Assembly: GCA_002762795.1 (NCBI GenBank)
Contig: PCYA01000017.1
Span: 801 to 64,800, forward strand
From: Candidatus Woesearchaeota archaeon CG10_big_fil_rev_8_21_14_0_10_37_12
GTDB taxonomy: Archaea > Nanobdellota > Nanobdellia > Woesearchaeales > ARS49
Direction of reading: 5' to 3'
Length of the DNA stretch: 64,000 nucleotides
A program made the translations under genes and the position numbers. Within the stretch, counting starts at the first letter, position 1, and each line of letters starts with the position of its first letter. Under the pieces are notes generated by a model. The model had not been told where the DNA came from. It ran no database searches and saw only the letters and a list, made by a program, of their open reading frames with translations. Positions 11,715 to 64,000 of this stretch are shown one piece after another.

Positions 11715-11761
11715 CTTTTATTTTTTTTAATTACTTTTTTTAGTATTTTTTTCTCAGAGGG

Positions 11762-11769
11762 TTTATAAG
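11762..11769 (+). promoter_or_regulatory. TATA box for the sigma-54-type AAA+ gene (leaderless)
   Basis: tttataag 23 bp upstream of the ATG at 11792, preceded by a T-rich terminator of the upstream gene. Confidence 0.35.
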
Positions 11770-11791
11770 TCAACAATATTTTAATAAGAAC

Positions 11792-25834: not shown

Positions 25835-26785
25835 TTAAGAACTTCTTCGGTCGCCGTTGAATCTGCCTGTTGTTTTACCGTATGCTTTTCCAGCAGCAGC
25901 CAACAAACGAGTGGTATATTTTTTTAAACGGCTTGTTTCTGGCTTAATATGCAACGGAATTGGTCTTACTGATTCTCCAACTTCGACGATGCGAACTGCA
26001 TTTCGCTCGTGTTTGGAGTCAAGTAAAGCTTCGTCAGCAGCAGTTCGCAATCCAGCAAACCGCTCAAGCATATACGGTTCATCGCCGTGTTCAATACGGA
26101 TGACATCTTCTGCAGTAGGTTTCCATAATGCAACTCCGACGCTGATTGTAACGGGAATTCTCGCATTTTCTCCATATCTTAAACTATCGTGCTTGAATTC
26201 GTAGCCAGCAACACGTTCAACCAATTGTTTTGCACGATGATATGCGACTTCTGCAGGAGTATTGTACTTAGCCCTTTTTAAATCAATTTGGTCCATCACT
26301 GCAGCAAACTCATCACCGCCAATGTGACCCAGCGCATCACCTTTTCTTGCCCACGCTTCCATGTGTCTACCAAGTCCAATTATTACGTAATCGCCTGCAT
26401 CATGGCCATGATGATCATTAATTTGTTTAAATTTATCTCCGTCGAGAAAAACAACTGCAAGAGGTCTCCTTGTTTTTCTGTATTCTCGCATCCCTCTGCT
26501 TAATGCATTTGGACCAGCAACTTCTTGAAAATAGGTTTTGTTAAACAAGCCAGTCATAGGATCAATAGCAACTCTGCGTTCTAAGGCATAAACTTTTGCT
26601 TCTAAAGCTTCTTTTTGATATTTGAGGAGGTCTCTTTCTGTTGTAACTCTTCGTAAATCGCGTTCAGCAGTGTTAACCCACCAGCTATTAAATTCAGCAA
26701 CATCAGCAAGAGCTATGCGTTCTGCTAAGTGTCTGTCTTCTTTGTTTTGATATGCTTCGTAGGTTTCTTCACCCATTTTCTTCAC
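25835..26785 (-). CDS. GGDEF-domain diguanylate cyclase with N-terminal coiled-coil
   Basis: DPMTGLFNK...RPLAVVFLDGDKFKQINDHHGHDAGDYVI...RKGDALGHIGGDEFAAV: intact GGDEF active site and RxxD I-site five residues upstream; no TM or sensor domain. Confidence 0.85.
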   Translation of the reverse strand: MKKMGEETYEAYQNKEDRHLAERIALADVAEFNSWWVNTAERDLRRVTTERDLLKYQKEALEAKVYALERRVAIDPMTGLFNKTYFQEVAGPNALSRGMREYRKTRRPLAVVFLDGDKFKQINDHHGHDAGDYVIIGLGRHMEAWARKGDALGHIGGDEFAAVMDQIDLKRAKYNTPAEVAYHRAKQLVERVAGYEFKHDSLRYGENARIPVTISVGVALWKPTAEDVIRIEHGDEPYMLERFAGLRTAADEALLDSKHERNAVRIVEVGESVRPIPLHIKPETSRLKKYTTRLLAAAGKAYGKTTGRFNGDRRSS

Positions 26786-27014: not shown

Positions 27015-29030
27015 ATGCACAAGCGGGCACAGCTTACGATATTTATCATCATAGGCATAATTCTTCTTATCAGCATAGCAACAGTTGTCTACTTCACGCA
27101 GAAAAAAGCAACACAACCGCTGGAACACATAAGCCCTGTTCCAGAAGACGTTAAACCAGTTTATGATTACGTAACGACTTGTTTAAATCAAATAAGCAAA
27201 GATGGAATTAACTTGCTTGGAGCACAAGGCGGTCACATAAACATCCCGTCAATAATTGAACGGACACCAACAGCATACATTGCAAATGATCCAGCAGAAA
27301 TATCAAAACTCCCGCACTGGTATTATGAAGGAGAAGACAGAACACCAACGCTGGAATTCATGCAAACAGAGTTATCGAGATATGTTCGTGATAACTTGCC
27401 GGAATGTATTAACAACTTTGCAGCATTTCAACCAAGATATTCTATAAGACCAATCACTAACAGCGTTCCTGTTATAACAATTGCAGACGAAACAGTGCTT
27501 GTGCAACTCAATTGGATCCTTCAAGTTGACACTCCAGAACGAACAACACAAATTGAAACATTCATCACAAACCATCCAGTAAAACTCAAACAAGCATGGC
27601 AGCTTGCAAAAGATGTCATGGAAACAGAAAACAAAGAAGACTGGCTAGAAAACTTAACAATAGATTTCATGAGTGCGAACACAAACATACCAATAAGTGG
27701 AATGGAATTCAGTTGTGGAAGAAAAAGATGGCTGCTCAGTCAAGTAAAAAAAGAATTGCAAGACATGCTTTATTACAATGTTCCATACATAAGACTTGCG
27801 AACACAAATTTGCCCGAACCAATAGAATCAGAAAGAACATATGAAAACTTGAAAAAAGAAAAACAAAAAATTCACAATGATTTGTTGAAAGGAAATCAAC
27901 CAGACTGGCCAGAAGACACGCCAACAGATGCATATGAAATTAACAGAATGACATGGAATACGGGCACGAGAAAAACAGATCTTAAAGCAGCATTTCAATA
28001 CCAGCCGCAATGGACAATGCAATTAAACGCGCAACCAAACTCAGGAAATCAATTAGTAAGCGGTAAATTTCAAGGAGCACGAAAATACCTCAGATTCTTC
28101 TGCATAAATCAGTGGCATTTTACATACGATGTGATTTACCCAATAAAACTTGCAATCAAAGATGAAACTGCATTTTATGGAGATGGCTATTTGTTCCAAA
28201 TGAGCTTCCCTGTTATTATCCAAGATAATGCGCCAAGCAGAGCATACTATGGCCACAGACGATTTGATGATATAATAACAGACGGAGAATTCTGCACTAC
28301 ATTCAGCAACCAACGAGCAGACATCAGAGTCAGAGGTTTGGAAGAAGGCGCAATTTTTGCAGAAGAACTTGAAGAAGTAAACATAAGCTATTCATGCTTT
28401 AATCAATATTGCACATTAGGACAAACACGAGCAGACTCTGCAGGAATCATTCGCTTGCAAACATATCTTCCGCAAGGTTGCGGCAATCCAGTAATTCATG
28501 CAGAAAAAGAAGGTTATATTCCAGCGCAAATACATGCAACAGAAGAAAACGTTGAACTCACACTAACACAACTCAAAAAAATGAATTACACAATCATGGT
28601 TCACCCATACAATCCTGTAACAAACACATGGCTGGACAGTCAGATAACAACTATATCACCGACTAGAGATCCAACAAGAAAAGCAAGTATTGCAGTTATT
28701 GTAAACACAGCAGATTATGAGCAATACTATGAATATCCAAGCCCGCAAAACAATACTCAAGCAGATTTTGTATACGGAGATGCTAGATATGATCTTGATA
28801 TAATTTTGCTTAAAGGCGAAAACCCAATAGGCGGCTATCACGCAGAAAACATCAGCATAACATACGAAGAGGTTGCAGGAATGAATAATGCAATATTCCA
28901 TGTCATAGAATGGCAAGGTGCACTCGACAGAAACTTTGATCCGGTAAACATGTTTGAGTTCATCTACGAAACAGGAATGCACAGAGGCAAACAATACGCA
29001 GAAGTACTCAAACCAACATTCACACCATGA
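27015..29030 (+). CDS. large N-terminally anchored extracellular protein
   Basis: 671 aa, one N-terminal TM helix, many N-glycosylation sequons and paired Cys; stop overlaps the next start (ATGA). Confidence 0.6.
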   Translation: MHKRAQLTIFIIIGIILLISIATVVYFTQKKATQPLEHISPVPEDVKPVYDYVTTCLNQISKDGINLLGAQGGHINIPSIIERTPTAYIANDPAEISKLPHWYYEGEDRTPTLEFMQTELSRYVRDNLPECINNFAAFQPRYSIRPITNSVPVITIADETVLVQLNWILQVDTPERTTQIETFITNHPVKLKQAWQLAKDVMETENKEDWLENLTIDFMSANTNIPISGMEFSCGRKRWLLSQVKKELQDMLYYNVPYIRLANTNLPEPIESERTYENLKKEKQKIHNDLLKGNQPDWPEDTPTDAYEINRMTWNTGTRKTDLKAAFQYQPQWTMQLNAQPNSGNQLVSGKFQGARKYLRFFCINQWHFTYDVIYPIKLAIKDETAFYGDGYLFQMSFPVIIQDNAPSRAYYGHRRFDDIITDGEFCTTFSNQRADIRVRGLEEGAIFAEELEEVNISYSCFNQYCTLGQTRADSAGIIRLQTYLPQGCGNPVIHAEKEGYIPAQIHATEENVELTLTQLKKMNYTIMVHPYNPVTNTWLDSQITTISPTRDPTRKASIAVIVNTADYEQYYEYPSPQNNTQADFVYGDARYDLDIILLKGENPIGGYHAENISITYEEVAGMNNAIFHVIEWQGALDRNFDPVNMFEFIYETGMHRGKQYAEVLKPTFTP

Positions 29031-32000
29031 AACAAACAAAATTATTGCTATTCATTTTTATTTTGCTAGCAACGCTTGTAAACGCGCAAGAAATAAACAT
29101 AACAAACGTGAATGTTAATCACACAAACCAAACAAGTGTTATCACATGGCAAACACAGCCAGCAGCAACAAGCCTTCTTCAATACGGCATTAATAATCTT
29201 GCACAAAACGCATCAGACAACAACGTAACAGTGCAACATAGAATAGAAATACCAACAACGCCAGGAGAAACATACCAGTACATCATTACAAGCTGTGCAA
29301 ACCAAAACTGCACAAGCATGCAACCAGCAACATTCACTGCAGGAAACTTCTTTGTCACAGCAGACATACCAACACATGTACGAACAGCAAATATTGATAT
29401 TACAGGAAGAACACAATCAGGAGCAACAATAAGATTAATACTTAACGGAAGAGACTTGCGAACATTAACCACGCAAACAAATACATTCTTGTTCCGAGAT
29501 ATTCAGCTCGACTCATCTAATAATACAATCATTATCCGCGCAACATCAGCAACAGGAGAAACAACACAAAAAAACTATCCTGTACGACTTGATAACTCTC
29601 CAGCAAGAGTATCAATAAACACAACTGCATTCACAACAGAAAAACCAGCACCATTGCGAATAGTAACTTCAGAGCCAGTACAATTGAACATCACAATACA
29701 ACAACTGGATGATGGAAATGAAACAAAAGAAGTGCAACATAATATCACTCTCGCAGGAACAATACAAATTCCAGTAGAATTATACGATGGAAGAAACAGG
29801 ATCAGCATTATTGCAACAGATTATGCAGGATTCACAACACACACAGAAACAGAAATTTATTATGATTTTGGACCGCCACAATTCTTAGAAACAAACCTTA
29901 ACCAATTAACGCCAAGCTACAGCAGATTAATACGCGTAAAAGGAACACTCAGCGAACCAGCAAGCGTGACAGTATTTCTCAACAATGAACCAGAAGAAAC
30001 AGTACAAACAGACAGCAACAATAAGTTCAACATACCAATAAACCTCAAACAATTCGCACAACTTGACAGAAGCCAAGCACCAAACAGAACAACATTGGAA
30101 ACAGGACTAGCATGGCGAAACAACATAAGATTAGAAGCAATAGATGCAGCAGGAAGAATAACAGCAATACAAGGAGATGTTGTTTACGCAAGCTGTTCAC
30201 AAGATGGACTCATAGATGTTGTTGTAACAGAGCCGCTGCCAGACATACTGAACACAAGATTATTAGTGGAAGGATTGCAGCAAGTCGGATTGTCGTTTAA
30301 CTACAGTTACAGAGGAGATCAGGAAGCAATCATCAGACCAGCAGACATAAGAATGCATAAACTCACACCAGGACAGGCATTCCAAAATGAATATGACAAC
30401 GCGCTCGCTACAGTTGCAAAACCAGGAGTAAAAGCAGCAAGCCAAACAGACGGCATAGGATATATCCAAGTAAACTTCAACTCCATAGAAGATCCATGGG
30501 CATTACCAGAAACAGGAAACGCGCCGCAAGCAACAGAACCTCCTTCAAATAATCCAACACTGTTTGACAAAGAAGATAGACTATCAGATCATAGAAAAGG
30601 AGACTGCTTGCTTCCGGGCTTTGGATGCATGCGAATTCTACTACAAATAGAAATACCATACCAAGAAAGCAGCGCAAGATATTACACAGGATCACAAAGA
30701 ACAACAACACAAACAGGGCAACAACCATTAGCACAAGATCTTGTTGACCTAAATGAACGCGTGCACAGAACATGCTTACCAATAGAAGTAGCAATAGACA
30801 GAAGAATACCTCCAGAAAAACTCGGAAGCAGTTTCCTGAACCACACATCAAGAGTTCTTGGCGAAATTGTAGAGAACATAGACAAAGTACTCAAACCAGT
30901 GGAAAATGTTGGACGATTCTTGTTCTACTCCTGTCTTGCAAGCACAGGATTAATGTACTTGCCAAGCCTAAACGAAAGATGGACGTGCAAATACAGCAAC
31001 GCTGTAAACTTATTTAACAGAGACCTAGACGAATCAGCAACATTCAATGAGGGAGTTGCTGCAATAGGAAAATGTGAAGATTTCTACACAGGAGAAGCAC
31101 TTGAAAACTGCAAATCGTGCAGCGAAGCAAAAACAACATTCAACAATTACAAATACTATTACCAGCAAATCTGCGACAGAGTAATGTGCGGAGCAGCACC
31201 AAGCTTACAAACTTACTTGCGAGTAAAAGGACGAACAACACTCGAAAAAATAGAAGGATCAGGATATGAAGCAGGAAGCGACTGTGCAATGTGGATGAAA
31301 GAAAAAGGCAAAATCGGCACAGGAAAAAGAGGAGCAGTTATTTTTTCGTATCAGGAAATAGAAGGAATATACAAAGACTGGTTGGAACACCAAAGTGATG
31401 ATGCAGATGACACAGGATTTTCAGGGGAAGTGAACTGTGCAGGGTTGCACCCAGCTGACGCAAGCTGTTGCGGATATGAATACATGCAGGAATGGAGCAG
31501 CGCTTGCGGAGTAAGCATAGGTGGTGGAGGTCTTGACTTATTCGATGAAATTAAAGAAAGCACATGCTTGAGTGCGCAAAACGCAAACAAAAATGAAATA
31601 CCGGGAGCAGGAGACACAACGATACAATGCAGCAGATTAACAAATGCTCTCAGTGGATTCTGTGATGCAAATGGAGGACCGCCACTAGAACCAATACGAG
31701 TTATGCACTTTGAAGGCGGAGACTCAGGAGTAACAGGCAAAGTACGCCAATTAGGATTAGCAACTAACAAGGAAAAATTCATGTACGTCCTAATAAAAGA
31801 AAATACAGGAGGGCAAACACAAGAAAAGCACTCAATAATGCTTGGATTTGTAGCTGAGAAAGTAAAATACGCACAAACACCGCAATCAGCAACATTTGCA
31901 GAAGAAGATATATTCAGCATTAATACGCAAACAGAAGCAAGAGTTATGCCTGGAGGGTATGAGCTACAACAACAATTCTTCAGAGAAGAACAAACAGCAG

Positions 32001-35000
32001 CTTATTATCAAGGACAGCTTGATGATAACTTTTACACACAATTCGGCAACTATCTTTGTAACCAAGCAGGATATTCTGGACTGCCTTGCCAAGATGGAGA
32101 CTTTACACGAGATGATGCCAAAGACGTTTACGCAAGAGTCATGCAATACATTGGAGATCCAGAACAAGAATACATTGTCAACCCAAGCTCTGGAGTAATA
32201 AATGCAGCACGATGCTTGTGCTTCCCAACACTCATTAGCTTCCTAAAAACTTGGAGGAATATACTGCAAGCAGTGCAAAACTGCGTTAACAGCATAATAT
32301 TAACAGGAGACGGAGATGCAGGAATCTGCCAAGAAGGAGTAACAATACCAATGTGCGATTTGTTATACGATGCAATTGCGTGTTTCACACAACGATTCGG
32401 AGCAGGAGGAGGACGAATAGGACTAGGAGGAGGAGATCCAATAGGAGCTCTCACCAGCGCAGGGGCACAAGTATCACGAACAGTAGAAAGCAGATACGGT
32501 ACGACAAACATGTATCAGGCAACATTCGGAGACAGAAAACTTGTGCATAGCATTTGTTTGTTTGCATTCACAGGAACATGGAACCTTGATCCTTCTGCAT
32601 TATTTGACCAAGCACTCGAAGACGTTCCAACAGAAAGTTATACATTGTTGTATCCTTGTCAGAGAAGGTACGTAAGCTATGATCCTACAACAACACCGGG
32701 AGGTTTAGTAACATGGGTGTACAATTTCGGTGCAGGAATAGCAGCAGGAGCAAACTTAGACGTAGACTTTAAACTCAAATGCAGTGCAGACAGAAGTTGT
32801 CTTCCATCAGAAGGTTTTGAAGGCGGCAAGTGTGATTGTGAAGAATCAGGACAAGAAAAATACTTGCCAATCAGACCACAAGGAACACCAACAAGAGTAG
32901 CAAAAGGAGAAATTTTCAATCAACCAGTGTACTTCACGTTAAAGGGTAATCCAAGAGATGGTTCAACAAGATATGATACGTTAATTATGACTCACAGATG
33001 GAGAGATCAAGGGAAAATAGCAGAAAAACAAACAGAATGCAAAATAGGCCAGGCAGGAGGACCGTTAAGCGTGCCTCCGCATTGTAAATTTGACGCGGCA
33101 ACATTAAGCTTTAGGTGCATGCTTGGAGAAGACGAAGGAGCAATCAGTTTATTGGGCTCAACAGTAGATGCACAGCACAACATACCAAACCCGGCATTTG
33201 CATTAGGAGAAGAACTCAACATTACGCTCGATGTAAGGCAAGCATACCCAAGACAAGACGCAATGTTCAACAAATATTTGGAGTACGCAGTCATGAATTC
33301 AGCAGGGCAAACAGTTGCAACAAATAAAGACGAAGCACTGCATCCCTTGACAACAAACGGCGATTACAAAATAAGAACAACAAACAGAGGAATATTCAGA
33401 ACACAATTAACTGTTACAGAAGACTGGTTCGGAACGCAGCAACAAACAGGCAGAAATTACCAGACAAGCACATGGAACAAAAATGAGCCTAGTGTGTTGT
33501 CGCCAAATGATGAAGGATTAATCGCAGATGTTTTGTTAACAGATGCTACAGGAAATACAAAAACAGAACAATCAGCGTTTGTTATCGAATTTTCCAATGA
33601 AAATGACCAAACAACATGGAAACTATTTGATGGAGGATCAAGAAGAAAATCAGCAGCAGGAATACAAAAAGGAAACCAATTAACAGGAGGAGTGTATAAC
33701 CCAACAACCACAATCATCTTCTATCAGGGAACAACAGCACAATCACAAATTGTCAGAGATCCAAATGCACCAGCAGGAGTACGAGTTGTACAAAGTGCAA
33801 ACGCAAATATCAGAATAACATTCAACAATATGCCTGTGCTTGCGCCAGGAGAACGAAAACAAATCTTAGTAGAATGGCAAAAACAACCAGAACTCGGAGC
33901 ATGCACTGACGAAACAAAAAGACAACAACCACAAAGATTCACCATAACATTCTCAGCATTTGATGCTGACGAAAACGGAAACCCAAGCAACCAAGTAAGC
34001 GTAGATCCAAACACAGGAACACCAGCACAATTGCAAGTACCATTTTTTGCAGTATGTTCAGAACCTTCAGCAATTGCACATTTGGAAACAGCAAACAATG
34101 AAACAATGATCAAACAATTCATGAGAGACATCCACGACGAATTTGGAAAAGCAAAAATAGAACAACAAGAATATCTTACAAGAATTGATGCATTTTTAGC
34201 ATCATCATACCCATTAGATACTCAGCAAGGAAAAGGAGATGTAGTATCAAGATTAGAGGCATTATTAACATATGAATCATTACATTACAACAAAATACAA
34301 GGATTTGTTAATAGACTAACAAGCTTGCCTACAGAGAACAGAATAGCAGGAGTTGATGAATTTGAAACACTTCTGAACAGATATAATGTTGAATTAGGAG
34401 TTGCAATTAGAGTAATCAGAGGAATGAAAGATGACATCAGACAAAGCAGTTTAAGACAAGAAATAGGACCAGCATTACTAGAGATTAAAACAAAACTTAC
34501 AGAATTAATGCAGACTAAAGACCAAGCAATACAGGCAACACAAGAAATAATCTTATTCAGACCAACAACTACAACACAACAATTAAGCCAAAGAGACCCA
34601 GCAACAACACCTTTGTTAGCAAATGATAGGAAAATATTGGAAGAAATAAAAAGATTGATTGAACGTCATCAACAAATAACTCCCATTTCCGCAAAAAATA
34701 GTCAAATAATAGAAATAAATAGGCTTTTCAACTATACTTTTACAGGTGTCACTGTTGAGTATGTTTATAACTTTATTAAAGCAATTAATATAACACAAAC
34801 CACACATTCTCAAACATATAGTGGGCACATAGGCAGACTTTCTTCAGAAGAACGAACAACCAGCATAGTTCAACTTGAAATAGAACTCATGCAATTCTTA
34901 ACACATACAAGATCAGTGCTGCCAAACCTTCAATTAACTGCGTATAAACAACAATTACAACAAATAAATTCAAGTTTCACACAAATCACACAAGCAGAAG

Positions 35001-35830
35001 ACGCAGTGCTAGCATACATTACTCAAAGATTAACAGCGCCAGAAGCGCAAGTAACAGCACAACCAACAATAGACGCGTCAACAAAAGAAGGACAATTGCA
35101 AGCACTCAAAACAGCAATAGAAACAGCAAGACGTGATCGAGAACCTTATTTGCTTACTTTCCAAGATTATGTAACTAATCCAGCAACAATGCCAAATGAT
35201 CATGTACAATTTAGAAATAGTTACGCGAGAGCGCAACAAGTAGAAATACAAAACATGCAAGCATTAGAAACAATACAAATAAATCAATTACCAGACATAA
35301 TTAAACAAGACGTAGAATTGCTTAAGTTCAATATGGGAACAATTACAACAGGAAGTATTGGCAGGTTTATACAGAACATACAAAGTGCTGATTTGCAACA
35401 ACTTAAGAGTCAAGTTCCTGAAATGCACCAGAAATATCAGCTAATAACTGGCCAAGAAGATAGCATTCTCAGACAAATAGACCAAGAACTCAGTTCTTCT
35501 GGATCGGGTGGAGCAGCAGGACCACCACAAGTTCAAACACCTCCGGCACAACCACAACAAACAACACTAGAAGATCAACAAAAACTTGGTGCACTCAAAA
35601 TCATCATTGAAGCAAACCAACAAATAAGAACTAATCACAAACAAAGAATAACAACATATCTCCCGGCACTTGCACCTGGAAATAAAGAAACAGTCAGAAA
35701 CCTAATACGAGCAATACAAGAAACAGAAAGCAGATACGCGAGAAATGTTGAATTAGCTCATATTGGGTTGTCCAGTCAAGAGTTAAGAGCAATACCACAA
35801 CTTGCAGCATTAAAATTCACAACAGACTAA
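29027..35830 (+). CDS. giant secreted surface protein (2267 aa): sequon-rich N-terminus, Cys-rich middle, Gln-rich coiled-coil C-terminal third
   Basis: Signal peptide MKQTKLLLFIFILLATLVNAQE, >60 NxS/T sequons, dense Cys clusters between aa 600-1300, Q-rich heptad-like region aa 1550-2260. Confidence 0.7.
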   Translation: MKQTKLLLFIFILLATLVNAQEINITNVNVNHTNQTSVITWQTQPAATSLLQYGINNLAQNASDNNVTVQHRIEIPTTPGETYQYIITSCANQNCTSMQPATFTAGNFFVTADIPTHVRTANIDITGRTQSGATIRLILNGRDLRTLTTQTNTFLFRDIQLDSSNNTIIIRATSATGETTQKNYPVRLDNSPARVSINTTAFTTEKPAPLRIVTSEPVQLNITIQQLDDGNETKEVQHNITLAGTIQIPVELYDGRNRISIIATDYAGFTTHTETEIYYDFGPPQFLETNLNQLTPSYSRLIRVKGTLSEPASVTVFLNNEPEETVQTDSNNKFNIPINLKQFAQLDRSQAPNRTTLETGLAWRNNIRLEAIDAAGRITAIQGDVVYASCSQDGLIDVVVTEPLPDILNTRLLVEGLQQVGLSFNYSYRGDQEAIIRPADIRMHKLTPGQAFQNEYDNALATVAKPGVKAASQTDGIGYIQVNFNSIEDPWALPETGNAPQATEPPSNNPTLFDKEDRLSDHRKGDCLLPGFGCMRILLQIEIPYQESSARYYTGSQRTTTQTGQQPLAQDLVDLNERVHRTCLPIEVAIDRRIPPEKLGSSFLNHTSRVLGEIVENIDKVLKPVENVGRFLFYSCLASTGLMYLPSLNERWTCKYSNAVNLFNRDLDESATFNEGVAAIGKCEDFYTGEALENCKSCSEAKTTFNNYKYYYQQICDRVMCGAAPSLQTYLRVKGRTTLEKIEGSGYEAGSDCAMWMKEKGKIGTGKRGAVIFSYQEIEGIYKDWLEHQSDDADDTGFSGEVNCAGLHPADASCCGYEYMQEWSSACGVSIGGGGLDLFDEIKESTCLSAQNANKNEIPGAGDTTIQCSRLTNALSGFCDANGGPPLEPIRVMHFEGGDSGVTGKVRQLGLATNKEKFMYVLIKENTGGQTQEKHSIMLGFVAEKVKYAQTPQSATFAEEDIFSINTQTEARVMPGGYELQQQFFREEQTAAYYQGQLDDNFYTQFGNYLCNQAGYSGLPCQDGDFTRDDAKDVYARVMQYIGDPEQEYIVNPSSGVINAARCLCFPTLISFLKTWRNILQAVQNCVNSIILTGDGDAGICQEGVTIPMCDLLYDAIACFTQRFGAGGGRIGLGGGDPIGALTSAGAQVSRTVESRYGTTNMYQATFGDRKLVHSICLFAFTGTWNLDPSALFDQALEDVPTESYTLLYPCQRRYVSYDPTTTPGGLVTWVYNFGAGIAAGANLDVDFKLKCSADRSCLPSEGFEGGKCDCEESGQEKYLPIRPQGTPTRVAKGEIFNQPVYFTLKGNPRDGSTRYDTLIMTHRWRDQGKIAEKQTECKIGQAGGPLSVPPHCKFDAATLSFRCMLGEDEGAISLLGSTVDAQHNIPNPAFALGEELNITLDVRQAYPRQDAMFNKYLEYAVMNSAGQTVATNKDEALHPLTTNGDYKIRTTNRGIFRTQLTVTEDWFGTQQQTGRNYQTSTWNKNEPSVLSPNDEGLIADVLLTDATGNTKTEQSAFVIEFSNENDQTTWKLFDGGSRRKSAAGIQKGNQLTGGVYNPTTTIIFYQGTTAQSQIVRDPNAPAGVRVVQSANANIRITFNNMPVLAPGERKQILVEWQKQPELGACTDETKRQQPQRFTITFSAFDADENGNPSNQVSVDPNTGTPAQLQVPFFAVCSEPSAIAHLETANNETMIKQFMRDIHDEFGKAKIEQQEYLTRIDAFLASSYPLDTQQGKGDVVSRLEALLTYESLHYNKIQGFVNRLTSLPTENRIAGVDEFETLLNRYNVELGVAIRVIRGMKDDIRQSSLRQEIGPALLEIKTKLTELMQTKDQAIQATQEIILFRPTTTTQQLSQRDPATTPLLANDRKILEEIKRLIERHQQITPISAKNSQIIEINRLFNYTFTGVTVEYVYNFIKAINITQTTHSQTYSGHIGRLSSEERTTSIVQLEIELMQFLTHTRSVLPNLQLTAYKQQLQQINSSFTQITQAEDAVLAYITQRLTAPEAQVTAQPTIDASTKEGQLQALKTAIETARRDREPYLLTFQDYVTNPATMPNDHVQFRNSYARAQQVEIQNMQALETIQINQLPDIIKQDVELLKFNMGTITTGSIGRFIQNIQSADLQQLKSQVPEMHQKYQLITGQEDSILRQIDQELSSSGSGGAAGPPQVQTPPAQPQQTTLEDQQKLGALKIIIEANQQIRTNHKQRITTYLPALAPGNKETVRNLIRAIQETESRYARNVELAHIGLSSQELRAIPQLAALKFTTD

Positions 35831-36073
35831 TTTAATGAAGCAAACATTCAAAACAATCAATATCTTATTCACGAAACACAAACAAGAATTAGTACTCCTC
35901 CAAGTCAACTAACTCCAGAACTGCTCAGAACTACATTAAACAAAATAAATCAATATTGCACGGCTGTTGAAAGAATAGAAACAACATTATTACAACAAAT
36001 AAATCAAAAATTACCTACACAAGCACAACCACCAGCACAATCACAACAAGACCACGTAGCGGATATACGGCTG

Positions 36074-36526
36074 GTGGGACAATATGTGGTTGATAATGGG
36101 CGTAGAATCCAATACGCAAGTAGTGTTGATTACACATTTGATTTGCTCATTAAGAAAGACGATGTGACTTACTCGTTTAGTGTCTCATTTAATGCTAGGC
36201 AGGATTACACTCCGGACATAGCGAAAATTGAAGCAGGAGTTCTTGTTGGTCGAGTGCACTATGTTTCCGTTAGGGATGGTAAACTTGATGGTCTTTTCTC
36301 AACAAATGAGCCAATGGACGAGCTTGCTAATTTCTGGGATGGCTGGCCTGATACAACAAATTTCGATGAAGCCGTTTTAATTGATAAAAATTCACCAGAA
36401 AGTAAGAAAAATGAAGCAAGACAACAATATGCTCGATTCATGAATGAAATAGCAGAGTTAATACGAACAGGAGATTTGGTCGTAACTGAAACAGAGTCGC
36501 ATAAAATAGCTGCGCTTCCAGAATAA
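36074..36526 (+). CDS. hypothetical globular domain; probably the C-terminal extension of the giant protein, same frame
   Basis: GTG-initiated ORF; the 243 bp between the giant gene's TAA (35828-35830) and 36074 are open in the same frame, have no ATG/GTG/TTG, and encode Q-rich sequence like the giant protein's C-terminus. Confidence 0.4.
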   Translation: MGQYVVDNGRRIQYASSVDYTFDLLIKKDDVTYSFSVSFNARQDYTPDIAKIEAGVLVGRVHYVSVRDGKLDGLFSTNEPMDELANFWDGWPDTTNFDEAVLIDKNSPESKKNEARQQYARFMNEIAELIRTGDLVVTETESHKIAALPE

Positions 36527-36527
36527 A

Positions 36528-36576
36528 ATGATAACCAAAACCTCGCCAAACGCGTGGAATTTGTTTGTTAAACACA
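36528..36576 (+). repeat. direct repeat 1 (49 bp): duplicated 5' end of the membrane-protein gene flanking the TA cassette
   Basis: atgataaccaaaacctcgccaaacgcgtggaatttgtttgttaaacaca; encodes MITKTSPNAWNLFVKHK then terminates; nearly identical to 37639-37690. Confidence 0.6.
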
Positions 36577-36610
36577 AAAAAAGAAACCTTTAAATACTAT
36601 TGGTTCATAT

Positions 36611-37168
36611 TTGGCACATATGGTTCAAAAAAGAAACAATGTTGAGTTGGAAATTATAGATCTATTGTTTAAAAAAGAGAATCATGTCAGAGGAATATCT
36701 AAAAAACTAAATGAATCTCATTCTACAATATCGAGAAAATTAAACTATCTTAAAGATGAAAACGCGATTGATTATGTGCGGGAAGGAAAAAATAAGGTGT
36801 TTTTTCTGAAAAAAAACATCGTTGCACAAAGTTACATTCTAACCTCAGAAATACACAAACTAATAAAATTATTGAGAATATGCCCAGAATTAAGCGTTAT
36901 TTTTGAAGAAATGCTAAATAAAACAGATGAAAAATTAATCATTCTTTTCGGATCCTACGCAAAAGGGCTTGCTAAAAAAGACAGCGATATAGATGTTTAT
37001 ATTGAGACAAAAAACAAAACCGTTAAAAAAATTGTTGAGGATATAAATTCAAAAATCAGTGTTAAAATTGGTACATTCGATATTGACTCTCCGCTCGTTA
37101 AGGAAATAATAAAAGATCACATAATTATCAGAGGAGTTGAAAAATTTTATGAAAAACAATTTTCTTGA
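36611..37168 (+). CDS. winged-HTH fused to a minimal nucleotidyltransferase (MNT antitoxin-like)
   Basis: N-terminal wHTH (HVRGISKKLNESHSTISRKLNYL), then LFGSYAKGLAKKDSDIDVYIE = GSx9-10DxD Pol-beta NTase motif. Confidence 0.7.
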   Translation: MAHMVQKRNNVELEIIDLLFKKENHVRGISKKLNESHSTISRKLNYLKDENAIDYVREGKNKVFFLKKNIVAQSYILTSEIHKLIKLLRICPELSVIFEEMLNKTDEKLIILFGSYAKGLAKKDSDIDVYIETKNKTVKKIVEDINSKISVKIGTFDIDSPLVKEIIKDHIIIRGVEKFYEKQFS

Positions 37169-37628
37169 AAAACTAAAAAAAGAAGAAAAACTAGAACTGA
37201 TCGACCCTTCAGAGAACATCCATGATTCTTACTTGGAAAAATCCAATAACTGTATGAAAGCAGCAAAATTATTGTTGCAAAACAAATTATATGAGAACTC
37301 TATCGGGATGTCTTATTATGCGATGTATGACTTGCTTGTAGCATTATTATTCAGAGTAGGAATTAAATGCGAGAATCACTCAGCAGCAATTCTATTGCTC
37401 AAATCACTATTTGAAAATGATGAATTGTTTAAACTTATTTCGAATGCAAAAAAAGAAAGAATTGATAAACAATATTATATAACGACTGAAAAAGATACTG
37501 TGACTGAAGAAATAGCAAAAGAATTATTAACTCATGCGGAATACTTTGTTTTAAATCTGAAATCAATTATTGCCAGATTAAAAAACGAGGATGTTCCTAA
37601 AATCAGAGAAAAATTCAAAACATTATAA
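37137..37628 (+). CDS. HEPN-domain protein (toxin-like partner of the MNT)
   Basis: All-helical 163 aa; overlaps the MNT gene by 32 nt; HEPN-MNT gene order; Rx4-6H not clearly assignable. Confidence 0.55.
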   Translation: MKNFMKNNFLEKLKKEEKLELIDPSENIHDSYLEKSNNCMKAAKLLLQNKLYENSIGMSYYAMYDLLVALLFRVGIKCENHSAAILLLKSLFENDELFKLISNAKKERIDKQYYITTEKDTVTEEIAKELLTHAEYFVLNLKSIIARLKNEDVPKIREKFKTL

Positions 37629-37638
37629 CACTGGAAAA

Positions 37639-37690
37639 ATGATCCTTACAAAAACCTTACCAAACGCGTGGAATTTGTTTGTTAAACACA
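37639..37690 (+). repeat. direct repeat 2 (52 bp) matching 36528-36576
   Basis: atgatccttacaaaaaccttaccaaacgcgtggaatttgtttgttaaacaca. Confidence 0.6.
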
Positions 37691-38448
37691 AGCAATACCT
37701 TATATTATTTGTATTGTTAGACTTTGTCTTTTTGTTCTTTACAGCACAAGCCCATTTAACTTATTTTATTCCGACAGCAGATGCGGCAAACAGAGCAGGA
37801 GAAATTATCACGCAAGAACTGCAAACACTGCAAATGACAGATGCATACCAACTGGACGCTATTCTAATGCAAAATTCGCAGTTTAAACAAGCATATCATG
37901 ACTTATTGCAAGGCATAATTTACTTTTTTATCACCATGTTTATCATCTGGATAGTTATCAGGTCAGCAATCTGGCACATCAGCTACAAAATAATTCATAA
38001 AAAAACAAACTGGAAAACAAACGTGCTCAAATTTGCACTGTTTAGCCTTTTTTGGTTTGTTGTTGTTGCAATCGTGTTCGTTCTTTACAGTATATCAACA
38101 GGAAGCACAGCAACATTGTTACCAATAGTTGGAAATCCGTTAATTAGCATATTGATGATTGCTCTGTTTGTTCTAATTTATTATTTCAGTCAGATAAGTT
38201 TTGCTCTTGTGCCGGTACAACAAAGTTTTAATAAGACCTTTGCTTACGGAGTAAAATATGCCAAGAAATTTGTTCCAGTGGCACTTATAAATGCAATAAT
38301 TGTGTTCCTTGCACTCAGTCTGCCACTTAACTGGCTGCAAACATACCCAATAATATCACTTGCAATAATCATAATCATCAGCATACCAGCACTCGCATTT
38401 GCACGAGTGCATATAATCGGAGCAACAGAATGGGTAAAAAAATATTAA
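37639..38448 (+). CDS. polytopic membrane protein
   Basis: Start set at ATG 37639 (MILTKTLPNAWNLF), since this N-terminus is what is duplicated at 36528; ORF track extends to 37591; 6 TM helices. Confidence 0.5.
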   Translation: MILTKTLPNAWNLFVKHKQYLILFVLLDFVFLFFTAQAHLTYFIPTADAANRAGEIITQELQTLQMTDAYQLDAILMQNSQFKQAYHDLLQGIIYFFITMFIIWIVIRSAIWHISYKIIHKKTNWKTNVLKFALFSLFWFVVVAIVFVLYSISTGSTATLLPIVGNPLISILMIALFVLIYYFSQISFALVPVQQSFNKTFAYGVKYAKKFVPVALINAIIVFLALSLPLNWLQTYPIISLAIIIIISIPALAFARVHIIGATEWVKKY

Positions 38449-39104
38449 TAGCACTTGTTTGTCTGGTAATAATAGTTATTTTATTACTTCTTGCACTGCA
38501 ATATCCAGTTATACAACAAACAAAAACAGTGCAGACAACACCACAACAATATCCTGAACAACAGGAAATGGTTGAACAAGAACAACTATTAGAATTACCA
38601 ACTGAATTGGAGATACCAACGCCAAGAAGCCCTGCACTGGAAACAAGACCGGCAGCAACACCAAAAGCACCGGAGCCAGAACTATCACCGACAGGAGTTT
38701 CAATAGACAAAGTATTCCCACAAACAGTGCAGTTCTGGGTAAATACAATCAAAGTACCTGACACTACAGGTGCAACTGAGTACACGTACAATTACATTCC
38801 GGTACAAGCAAGAGAACTCAAAACATTTGCCGGAAGTTTCGGACCATATGCAGAAGACCCAATAGAACACATAATAATACTTCTTTGTGCAGAACTTACA
38901 AAAATAACAGCAGCACCATCATGTCAGCCAGTCAACATTGTATTCAGAGATGGTTATGTGAGCTTTGCAAAAGGCTACCAATATGACGAATATATTGGTG
39001 GGATGGCTGCAAAAGATTATACGGCTTACTATGAAATACACTTAAAAGAAACAGACACAATCATCAGAACAAGCAACAAAGCGTTTGTGAGAACAGTTAA
39101 TTAA
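38430..39104 (+). CDS. secreted protein with Pro/Glu/Gln-rich linker
   Basis: N-terminal TM/signal, PEQQEMVEQEQLLELPTELEIPTPRSP linker, ~120-aa C-terminal domain. Confidence 0.45.
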   Translation: MGKKILIALVCLVIIVILLLLALQYPVIQQTKTVQTTPQQYPEQQEMVEQEQLLELPTELEIPTPRSPALETRPAATPKAPEPELSPTGVSIDKVFPQTVQFWVNTIKVPDTTGATEYTYNYIPVQARELKTFAGSFGPYAEDPIEHIIILLCAELTKITAAPSCQPVNIVFRDGYVSFAKGYQYDEYIGGMAAKDYTAYYEIHLKETDTIIRTSNKAFVRTVN

Positions 39105-44383: not shown

Positions 44384-44535
44384 TTTTTTATCTCAAATGT
44401 TGGGTCTAATACAAAGAAAATTCTCAGAGTTTTCTGTGCGCGAAAAATGTATTTTTCGCTGTAGAAAAATGAACGATACCAATAAAATTCTTAGAATTTT
44501 ATGGCGCCAAAAAATGCTTTGAATTTTTTGAGCGA

Positions 44536-44580
44536 AATACCCTGACCTTCAGGTCGGGGAATGGTGCGTTTTTCTTTATT
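44536..44580. repeat. GC-hairpin plus T-tract element copy 1 (CCTGACCTTCAGGTCGGGGAATGGTGCGTTTTTCTTTAT)
   Basis: ~90% identical to 49991-50035; sits between convergent gene ends. Confidence 0.5.
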
Positions 44581-49975: not shown

Positions 49976-50035
49976 AGAAAAACGCACGATAAAATACCCC
50001 GACCTTCAGGTCGGGGAATAGTGCGTTTTTCTTTA
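49976..50035. repeat. GC-hairpin plus T-tract element copy 2 (AAAAACGCAC...CCCCGACCTTCAGGTCGGGG...GTGCGTTTTT), likely bidirectional terminator between ftsZ and the SemiSWEET gene
   Basis: Nested perfect stems CCCCGACC/GGTCGGGG and AAAAACGCAC/GTGCGTTTTT flanked by T-runs on both strands; a second hairpin CCCCGCCCTTTAGGGCG at 49947-49963. Confidence 0.5.
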
Positions 50036-50110
50036 TAATTGCATTCATTGTTTACCTGAAAAAAGGATATTCACAAAATTAAAAATAGTTAATAAAAAAG
50101 AAAATAAAAA

Positions 50111-52078: not shown

Positions 52079-52147
52079 GTCGAAAACTCTTAATTTTAGT
52101 ATTTTATTCTAAAAGGATTTATATGTTTTCCAATTTTAAATTTACTT

Positions 52148-63736: not shown

Positions 63737-63757
63737 TTAATTCAAAGTTGCCTTTAC

Positions 63758-63852
63758 GGACCGTAGGGGCTTCGAACCCCCGACCACTCGGTATCTGTCT
63801 TGAGTATATCAAGCTAAGAGCCGAGTGCTCTACCAGACTGAGCTAACGGTCC
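63758..63852 (-). tRNA. tRNA-Lys(CUU) with a 22-nt intron at the canonical 37/38 position
   Basis: Reverse complement GGACCGT-TA-GCTC-AGTCTGGTA-GAGC-A-CTCGG-CUCUUA-[GCTTGATATACTCAAGACAGAT]-A-CCGAG-TGGTC-GGGGG-TTCGAAG-CCCCT-ACGGTCC gives a perfect 7-bp acceptor, D, anticodon and T stems, U33, anticodon CUU; no encoded CCA. Confidence 0.8.
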
Positions 63853-64000
63853 AATATAAAGAAAAACAAGCGTTTCTTTTAAATATCTTGCGCAGTTATT
63901 TCCTTAACTTTTTAATTTGCAATCTAAAAAATTTCTTTACTTCTTTCACAACAGAATCTGTACTTGCAAAGAAGTCAAACAAACTTCCTATGAAAAGTGT

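Follow-up and report, generated by a model that had tools for sequence, protein, structure and literature searches.

Organization of the locus

The window, i.e., the whole stretch of 64,000 nucleotides that was analysed, carries on its forward strand a giant gene whose ATG-started open reading frame (29027..35830, 2267 codons) is closed by a TAA at positions 35828-35830. Beyond this codon the same frame stays open for another 231 sense codons (35831-36523) until a second TAA is reached at 36524-36526, in agreement with the coordinates given in the initial annotation. The features of the locus are given below, whereby L007, L008, L009 and L010 denote four related loci.

29027..35827, forward strand: truncated giant secreted or surface protein of 2267 codons (COV18_05905 of Candidatus Woesearchaeota archaeon CG10_big_fil_rev_8_21_14_0), with a signal-peptide-like N-terminus, a conserved body of about 1700 residues and a helical modular tail
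34637..35074, forward strand: tail module M2, amino acids 1871-2016, with a P/Q/T-rich linker at its end (end-to-end alignment to M4 joined across the stop)
35093..35575, forward strand: tail module M3, amino acids 2023-2183, four predicted helices and a P/Q-rich linker (alignment to M4; AF2 secondary structure of low confidence)
35576..35827, forward strand: first half of module M4, amino acids 2184-2267, two long predicted helices (module alignment, structure prediction)
35828..35830, forward strand: in-frame TAA, probably premature, close to position 85 of a module of about 160 residues (module alignment; codon in L008; same in two other assemblies)
35831..36073, forward strand: two predicted helices forming the second half of M4, then the P/Q-rich linker, 81 start-less codons (frame-0 coding and module alignment)
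36073..36088, forward strand: possible secondary initiation site, consisting of a GGTGGG Shine-Dalgarno-like motif (36073-36078) and an in-frame GTG at 36086, compatible with chance
36074..36526, forward strand: orphan region of about 150 residues, beta strands followed by helices in a low-confidence model, with its natural stop TAA at 36524-36526 (frame continuity, synteny)
36528..36593, forward strand: decayed duplicate covering the 5' part of the membrane-protein gene, reading MITKTSPNAWNLFVKHKKRNL and then a stop (comparison with the L008, L009 and L010 junctions)
36611..37628, forward strand: inserted gene pair of a nucleotidyltransferase (MNT) and a HEPN protein (44-nt direct repeats at 36534-36577 and 37648-37691)
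37639..38448, forward strand: conserved multi-pass membrane-protein gene, next after the giant gene in relatives (269 aa in the JGI call; 41-51% identity to L007-L010)

No TATA-like box (TTTAWA) was found between 35500 and 36588, and T-runs of at least four are absent from 35000-36293, as are T-runs of at least five before 36800, which is why the region is regarded as one transcription unit.

The reading frame beyond the stop codon

The earliest in-frame ATG, GTG or TTG behind the TAA at 35828-35830 is the GTG at position 36074, which is the 82nd codon, and the 243 nt in front of it are start-less, so that the earlier count of 81 codons free of these three triplets is correct. Within these 243 nt frame 0 is free of in-frame stops, the other two frames holding 6 and 4, and frame 0 was left open in 96 of 20,000 mononucleotide shuffles of the sequence (P ~0.005). 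Codon log-likelihoods placed frame 0 ahead by 20-46 nats, depending on which of three training sets was used. The distribution of stops, the shuffles and the codon statistics taken together identify the stretch as coding in frame 0. With respect to start-less codons upstream of an ORF, the value of 81 is the maximum among the 50 window ORFs of at least 150 aa, the runner-up having 33. Inside the giant gene the longest start-less run amounts to 114 codons, and a run of 81 is thus normal within this gene. As read from the sequence, the 81 post-stop codons are former coding sequence of the giant gene.

A helical module continuous across the stop codon

The tail of the giant protein is built from helical modules of about 155-165 residues with P/Q-rich linkers in between. 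The fourth of these, M4, is made up of the last 84 residues in front of the stop and the first ~79 residues behind it, and is collinear and end to end with both preceding modules. Joined across the stop, M4 yielded a Smith-Waterman score of 95 with M2 (z 8.0, 0/300 shuffles) and of 80 with M3 (z 6.4, 0/300 shuffles), and an hhalign comparison with the M2/M3 profile returned an E-value of 4e-5 over 143 columns spanning the stop. As M4 aligns end to end with M2 and M3, the TAA sits in the middle of a module, and the frame-0 alignment to the repeat modules resumes at the third residue after it. The post-stop sequence, initially described as being of the same character as the preceding coiled-coil, can thus be addressed more precisely as the second half of the repeat module. 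AlphaFold, run on the single sequence of the extension, gave pLDDT values of ~65-72 for the first 60 residues (two helices) only, the 150-residue region remaining below 50. A displaced 'orphan' C-terminal cassette, as found in polymorphic toxin loci, was considered and dismissed, as no end domain precedes the stop and module 4 is continuous across it.

It was further considered that a downstream gene starts from the ATG at 35835, which belongs to the +1 frame and is found 5 nt past the stop, and reaches frame 0 by programmed frameshifting or an indel. This location would suit termination-reinitiation, the product would begin with MKQT like the giant protein, and ATGAAGCAAACA matches the start of the giant gene, ATGAAACAAACA, in 11 of 12 bases. 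However, the +1 frame shuts after 25 codons, inspection by eye found no X XXY YYZ slippery heptamer in it, and the codon statistics of the entire 243 nt prefer frame 0, whose translation follows the modules almost directly from the stop onwards, as described above. The probability of such a gene is regarded as negligible.

The giant gene in related archaea

Comparison of orthologous loci, as the initial annotation had proposed, identified four Woesearchaeota/Nanoarchaeia loci (L007, L008, L009 and L010) in which the giant gene is a single ORF without interruption (2419-2915 aa) that extends to the membrane-protein gene and has no stop at the equivalent place. The relatives match the giant protein from residue ~2 to ~1850, with 38-41% identity in the best segment, and Pfam returned weak Ig-like matches only. 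The C-terminal third of the giant protein is wholly different between the relatives, and the tails encoded in L007-L010 are not residue-for-residue orthologous to that of the window, L008 being a partial exception. In L008, the closest of these relatives, a tail module was aligned across the window's stop (Smith-Waterman score 72, z 3.7, 0/200), with GAC CAA TTC AAT of L008 standing opposite GAC TAA TTT AAT of the window; this is a single alignment of moderate significance, and the module may be a paralogous or an orthologous one. Most simply, the ancestral codon would have been CAA (Gln), which a C-to-T change would have converted into TAA. Database searches retrieved no close relative of this species, and an exact pattern across the stop with NNN in place of the codon, used to search metagenome contigs and genome contigs for strain variants, gave no match.

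The operon order is conserved and comprises up671, the giant gene, the membrane-protein gene and p224. In all four relatives the stop of the giant gene overlaps or abuts the start of the membrane-protein gene; no gene separates the two in L007, L009 and L010, and L008 harbours an inserted toxin-antitoxin pair alone at this position, the stop of its giant gene abutting a duplicated membrane-gene start. The L008 giant protein ends straight after a module and its linker, without a globular end. In the window it is the post-stop frame that is followed, after 1 nt, by the original ATG (36528) of the membrane-protein gene, and from this spacing between the TAA and the ATG of the decayed duplicate the former end of the giant gene is placed at 36524-36526. 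A template/variable repeat pair, as diagnostic of a diversity-generating retroelement, was not found in the window.

Nature of the stop codon

The window is matched with 100% identity, stop included, by a contig from JGI (3300004210) over 25.7 kb and by a Logan contig (SRR6240789) over 17.5 kb; both contigs may share the sampling site or reads with it. At the consensus level the stop is real. An artefact, or a minority allele that entered the consensus while a sense codon is the true majority at 35828, would be in keeping with the origin of the sequence from a metagenome-assembled genome and with the common origin of all copies in Crystal Geyser-type samples, which possibly extends to common reads. 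Against this stands the base-for-base agreement of three assemblies from different pipelines over 17-26 kb, and single-base substitution errors are rare in the consensus of short-read assemblies. The sequencing error, which had initially been offered as one option, is left with a very slim chance.

Whether TAA is a normal stop elsewhere had also been raised, and this is the case, as it terminates 30 of the 50 window ORFs that reach 150 aa or more. Other TAA codons of the window are followed by the next in-frame stop within a few dozen codons, except where the following gene is by chance in frame with them. This usage in the window speaks against a genome-wide reassignment of TAA. A UAA suppressor tRNA was not found in the window, a part of a 784-kb contig: the four-base anticodon 'ctta' reported by ARAGORN (63756-63853, reverse strand) is a mis-parse, as sequence and Rfam alignment reveal a tRNA-Lys(CUU) with a 37/38 intron, which is the sole tRNA in the window.

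Programmed or regulated readthrough of UAA, the second option put forward initially, would imply that most ribosomes stop at 35828, and that a functional fraction reads UAA as sense by means of a near-cognate tRNA (e.g., tRNA-Gln), so that a minor long isoform includes the remainder of module 4 as well as the C-terminal domain. The 231-codon extension is fully intact and in frame, a start, a promoter and a terminator are all absent in between, and the stop is fixed in every available assembly, which would suit such a scenario. Yet UAA is the standard terminator here and is generally the least leaky stop codon. The stop context, for which a readthrough-promoting sequence or structure had been suggested as a check, reads GAC UAA UUU AAU, with U as +4 base and no CARYYA-type motif, whereby the underlying rules are bacterial and eukaryotic and may not be archaeal. 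Also, the 139 nt downstream of the stop fold with a minimum free energy of -4.7 kcal/mol, i.e., no better than shuffled sequences (z +1.08), 174 of 200 of which fold at least as well. The window offers no suppressor tRNA, the stop interrupts a structural repeat midway and does not coincide with a domain boundary, and stop and extension are not jointly conserved, the relatives having neither a stop at this place nor a homologue of the end domain. A review on archaeal recoding cites stop-codon readthrough for selenocysteine and pyrrolysine cases only, and the term UAA is absent from its text (PMC8211752). That the UAA at 35828 serves as a functional, low-efficiency readthrough site in this DPANN archaeon, supplying a minor fraction of the protein with the whole fourth module and the distal 150-residue domain, is therefore considered very unlikely, with nothing positive in its favour.

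The distal 150-residue region

Two annotations treat the end region as a separate gene, i.e., COV18_05910 with 150 aa from GTG 36074 and the JGI call with 146 aa from GTG 36086. Homologues of the 231 post-stop residues were not found beyond the sequence itself, neither in a word-indexed search of 5.8 billion proteins nor in a HMMER scan of 1.84 billion representatives; Pfam (E-values up to 10), PDB sequences and a metagenome scan returned the sequence itself or nothing, and tblastn of the post-stop region on nine related loci gave no match. Frame continuity and synteny suggest that the 150-residue region probably once served as the C-terminal domain of the giant protein. The doubt that had been cast on GTG 36074 appears justified, since the module runs across the stop and the relatives possess a single ORF, and this codon is probably not the ancestral start.

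As an alternative, the ORF of 146 or 150 residues could be, or have become, an independent gene whose translation begins at GTG 36086 or 36074 with the help of the GGTGG motif. The giant gene would once have ended within or just after the last linker, as it does in L008, and would later have lost this stop; the TAA at 35828 would still be premature, but would cost the giant protein only ~80 codons. In support of this, the distance from GGTGG to the downstream GTG 36086 is 8 nt, which falls within the range of other internal operon genes, the motif is located at the boundary between linker and domain, both annotation pipelines call a separate gene, and module and linker directly precede the stop in the L008 giant gene. 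Secondary initiation at GTG 36086 is possible in view of this motif. However, combinations of a Shine-Dalgarno motif and an in-frame start arise by chance at a rate of 0.0025 per codon, and six of them are located inside the giant gene. As linker and ORF are not separated by a stop, an extra stop-loss event would be needed, and the gene order of the relatives, with nothing but the L008 toxin-antitoxin pair between giant and membrane-protein gene, speaks against an additional gene. Furthermore, the product would have no signal peptide, and the rest of the operon encodes membrane-bound or secreted proteins. The usage of A at fourfold sites, which is 0.37 in the ORF as compared to 0.64-0.72 in the giant gene, would at first fit a separate gene; it was discarded as a sign of one, because the drop in A-ending codons recurs at the 3' ends of the uninterrupted giant genes of L009 and L010 and in the giant gene's own tail. 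Considering both sides, an independent gene is unlikely.

Proposed history of the giant gene

Of the explanations put forward by the initial annotation, a nonsense mutation within one gene of ~2,498 codons fits the continuity of the module and the CAA codon of L008; a sequencing error and programmed readthrough are both considered very unlikely. An ordinary and apparently recent nonsense truncation of the giant gene is the probable explanation. The gene would once have formed one frame of ~2,498 codons (29027-36526) encoding a secreted or surface protein, composed of the conserved body of ~1,700 residues, the four-helix modules with their P/Q-rich linkers, the last linker and, at the C-terminus, a lineage-specific domain of ~150 residues, with the ancestral stop directly before the gene that follows in the operon. 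A single-base nonsense change at 35828, most simply from CAA (Gln) to TAA, would have caused translation to end at codon 2268 in the midst of the fourth module, and the protein would now be made without the second half of module 4, the linker and the C-terminal domain. Past the stop, 696 nt would still be co-transcribed but no longer be translated as part of the giant protein, and residual translation beyond the stop would be due to background near-cognate readthrough and possibly to weak initiation at GTG 36086. As the tail has acquired no further stop or frameshift, the change is assumed to be recent.

Several points were counted against this explanation. An intact tail of 231 codons would equally be expected from continued selection, be it by readthrough or by separate translation. 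The 150-residue region has no orthologue in the databases and loci searched, the L008 protein ends without a globular domain, GGTGG is found near GTG 36086, the L008 alignment is moderate, and the assemblies are possibly not independent, so that a CAA/TAA polymorphism in the population is conceivable.

Comparison with known systems

Sulfolobus is among the archaea whose interrupted genes have been catalogued (reviewed in PMC8211752). The giant gene resembles such nonsense-interrupted ('split') genes or young pseudogenes in that one in-frame stop lies in a sequence which is continuous in paralogous repeats and in relatives, that the part behind the stop lacks a start and that, going by the L008 alignment, the stop would be one base away from the aligned sense codon of a relative. 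Unlike usual split genes, it loses the C-terminal 9% only and would hence be truncated rather than inactivated.

The architecture of an ORF, a lone in-frame stop and a long open extension with a separate end domain is shared with the Qbeta A1 coat protein (UGA), MuLV gag-pol (UAG) and the tobamovirus replicase (UAG), in which programmed readthrough yields a C-terminal extension, as does the redefinition of stop codons for selenocysteine and pyrrolysine in archaea. The giant gene differs from these systems by its UAA-U, which is devoid of stimulatory context and structure, is not conserved in relatives, lies inside a structural repeat and is accompanied by no identified tRNA or cis element. A further likeness, which concerns the gene and not its stop, exists to the giant cell-surface proteins of episymbionts, DPANN archaea among them, and comprises the signal-peptide-like N-terminus, the Ig-like N-terminal domains, the very large size, the operon with membrane proteins and the variable distal end.

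Implications

The stop would be of far greater importance only if it were read through, as this would be the first archaeal UAA readthrough with standard amino acids that gives two isoforms, and nothing found here points that way. With regard to annotation, COV18_05905 and COV18_05910 would be one gene cut by a premature stop and not a 2267-aa protein followed by an unrelated hypothetical protein of 150 aa. The sampled groundwater population would possess a giant surface protein without its distal end, and this truncation could mean that the hypervariable tip of what is probably a host-interaction protein of an episymbiotic archaeon was lost recently or is undergoing turnover.

The interrupted frame of the giant gene

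The window is part of a 784-kb contig of a DPANN archaeon sampled in the Crystal Geyser aquifer, on which the giant ORF of a secreted/surface protein carries the annotation COV18_05905 (hypothetical protein) and the ORF downstream of it COV18_05910.

29027..35830, + strand: giant ORF, 2267 aa, ATG start, signal-peptide-like N-terminus, ending at TAA 35828-30

Past this TAA, 231 sense codons follow in the same frame up to TAA 36524-26, with GTG 36074 being the earliest in-frame ATG, GTG or TTG. Within the 243 start-less nt, the giant's frame (frame 0) contains no stop as compared to six and four in the other frames, stays open in just 0.5% of shuffles and is ahead by 20-46 nats in codon log-likelihood, whether the other genes, the whole giant or the giant's tail served as training set. 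Of the 50 window ORFs with 150 aa or more, none besides this case has a start-less open stretch upstream that exceeds 33 codons. The start-less coding frame reported by the initial annotation to continue to 36526 was thus confirmed. A further ATG locates to 35835, 5 nt past the giant's TAA in the +1 frame, opening a 25-codon ORF (35835-35912; MKQTFKTINILFTKHKQELVLLQVN) whose first 12 nt differ by a single base from those of the giant (ATGAAGCAAACA vs ATGAAACAAACA), which is probably a coincidence in A-rich sequence.

A helical module continues across the stop

Helical modules of ~155-165 residues each, with P/Q/T-rich linkers between them, make up the giant's C-terminal quarter. The 81 post-stop residues by themselves match aa 1949-2016 of the giant (z 4.3, 1/500 shuffles), and the 84 pre-stop residues match aa 1911-1942, directly upstream of that region. 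Joined across the stop, the fourth module (M4; aa 2184-2267, the stop and post-stop residues 1-79) was found to align collinearly and end to end with both M2 (aa 1871-2016; Smith-Waterman score 95, z 8.0, 0/300 shuffles) and M3 (aa 2023-2183; score 80, z 6.4, 0/300), and a profile of M2 and M3 matches M4 over 143 columns that include the stop (hhalign E 4e-5). Therefore, the TAA resides at ~position 85 of a ~160-residue unit, and the 81 start-less codons, earlier described as being of the same character as the preceding coiled-coil, represent the second half of M4 plus a linker. Single-sequence AlphaFold models of low confidence, which predict four helices for M3 and, for M4, two long ones before the stop and two after it, are consistent with the module continuing across the stop. 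For the 150 residues past the last linker, sequence comparison detected no relationship to the giant or to anything else searched.

Related loci and the probable original end of the giant

To identify relatives, GTDB genomes were pattern-scanned using the giant aligned to two distant homologues, which recovered seven loci, four of them with the complete region. In all four, the gene order is a membrane-anchored protein (~670-720 aa), the giant, a multi-pass membrane protein (~265-285 aa) and an anchored protein (~200-225 aa), the three flanking proteins sharing 39-53% identity with their counterparts in the window. Each giant is a single uninterrupted ORF (2885, 2419, 2674 and 2915 aa), and a separate small gene between the giant and the membrane-protein gene is without precedent among the relatives. 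The relatives' giant stop overlaps or directly adjoins the membrane-gene start: both overlap as ATGA in locus L009, the start follows immediately after the stop in L010, and in L008 (Ca. Woesearchaeota SURF_65) the stop adjoins a duplicated copy of that start. The window keeps the original membrane-gene start as a decayed duplicate (ATG 36528, MITKTSPNAWNLFVKHK..., vs MILTKTLPNAWNLFVKHK at 37639), parted from the functional copy by an inserted MNT-HEPN pair. As the post-stop frame ends 1 nt before ATG 36528, the giant by synteny probably once extended from 29027 to 36526, and these ~2,498 codons lie within the relatives' size range.

The tails of the relatives show no relationship to each other past residue ~1700, so a lineage-specific end domain is normal for this family. 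Among the relatives, only L008 possesses a similar helical tail, one module of which aligns across the window's stop (score 72, z 3.7, 0/200), with the codons ...ACT ATT GAC CAA TTC AAT GCA... facing ...ACA ACA GAC TAA TTT AAT GAA... in the window; this suggests, without proving, that the stop derived from CAA via a C-to-T transition. The module being continuous across the stop, the relatives uninterrupted and CAA standing at the aligned L008 codon, the nonsense mutation in a ~2500-aa gene initially proposed fits.

The four-gene operon (window 27015-39104 and loci L007-L010) is conserved in Woesearchaeota/Nanoarchaeia-type MAGs and combines a secreted giant of 2,400-2,900 aa, having a Cys-rich conserved body and a hypervariable last third, with an N-terminally anchored ~670-720-aa, a ~270-aa multi-pass membrane and a ~200-225-aa anchored protein. 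None of these belongs to a Pfam family, weak Ig-like matches at the giant's N-terminus excepted. Several GTDB records of the operon bear the label 'uncultured Methanosarcinales', which looks like mislabelled binning.

The 150-residue ORF

The 150-residue ORF (36074..36526) was also considered as a gene of its own, given that GTG 36086, the start called by JGI (NCBI calls GTG 36074), carries GGTGG 8 nt upstream and that fourfold-site A drops to 0.37 from 0.64-0.72, an apparent codon-usage break. However, an in-frame SD-plus-start arises by chance at 0.0025 per codon and six occur within the giant itself, the same drop is found at the 3' ends of the uninterrupted L009 and L010 giants and in a 75-codon stretch of the window giant's own tail, and neither a TATA-like box nor a T-run lies between the giant and this ORF. 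For these reasons, ancestral fusion of the region to the giant is considerably more likely than a separate gene. The earlier proposal that GTG 36074 is probably not a real start accordingly fits the ancestral gene, but secondary initiation may occur following truncation, at GTG 36086 with its GGTGG.

Readthrough and sequence error as alternatives

Programmed readthrough of the stop, the other explanation initially offered, was not borne out. TAA is the commonest ordinary stop in the window (30 of 50 ORFs), and other TAAs are backed up by a further in-frame stop a few dozen codons on at most, unless the gene that follows happens to share the frame at a gap of 3-6 codons. The stop has the context GAC UAA UUU, the 139 nt around and after it fold no better than shuffles (z +1.08), and the 64-kb window contains no suppressor tRNA. 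Moreover, the TAA sits within a structural repeat, away from a domain boundary, and the relatives have no stop at the equivalent place. A review of archaeal recoding cites readthrough for selenocysteine and pyrrolysine stop codons only, the term UAA being absent from its text (PMC8211752). Traces of the long form could still arise through background near-cognate decoding; functional UAA readthrough in this archaeon, for which no positive support was found, is very improbable.

An error in the sequence had likewise been considered. However, the identical 2267-aa product is encoded on two other contigs, one from JGI (metagenome 3300004210) and one from Logan (SRR6240789), which share 100% identity with the window over 25.7 kb and 17.5 kb, respectively. 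An assembly artefact is therefore unlikely, even if the datasets are perhaps not independent.

Toxin-antitoxin inserts and further features of the window

In two Woesearchaeota genomes, the position right after the giant's stop, within the first codons of the membrane-protein gene, is occupied by a toxin-antitoxin pair, a different one in each.

Window, 36534-37691: MNT (36611-37168) and HEPN (37137-37628), between 44-nt direct repeats, 93% identical
L008, 13135-14067: MazE/AbrB-type antitoxin and PIN toxin, between 116-nt direct repeats, 93% identical

In both, the repeats duplicate the membrane-gene 5' end, the upstream copy having decayed; no insert is present in L007, L009 or L010. Toxin-antitoxin cassettes may thus have a recurrent insertion hot spot here, or integrate by a mechanism that duplicates the target.

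Two further features were identified, the first of them with a c-di-GMP signalling domain, a kind of domain that is rare in Archaea.

25835-26785, - strand: 315-aa protein with a clear GGDEF diguanylate-cyclase domain (Pfam PF00990, E 2.5e-25, residues 72-225)
63757-63852, - strand: tRNA-Lys(CUU) with a ~24-nt intron at the canonical 37/38 position

The latter, listed by ARAGORN as 'tRNA-???' with the four-base anticodon 'ctta', was rejected as a UAA-reading suppressor. Together with the mixed start types of the window (first genes TATA-box/leaderless, internal genes GGTG/GGAGG-led), it fits an archaeal origin.

Two intergenic sites 5.5 kb apart (44535-44579 and 49992-50036) carry a 45-nt direct repeat (96% identical) in which a T-run follows a G+C-rich hairpin (CCC(T/C)GACCTTCAGGTCGGGG), possibly a terminator common to both or a small repeated element. 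A 48-nt stretch (75% identical; 11738-11785 and 52094-52141) with TATA-like TTTATAAG/TTTATATG precedes two genes 40 kb apart (starts 11792 and 52148) and is a candidate promoter or regulatory region common to both.

Implications

Nonsense truncations of this sort are ordinary events; the interesting alternative would be that an archaeon makes functional use of UAA readthrough. TAA 35828-30 most probably marks a real and apparently recent nonsense mutation by which the gene of a giant DPANN surface protein was truncated. The product would lack half of a helical module, a linker and the orphan end domain, and COV18_05905 and COV18_05910 are to be read as one interrupted gene.
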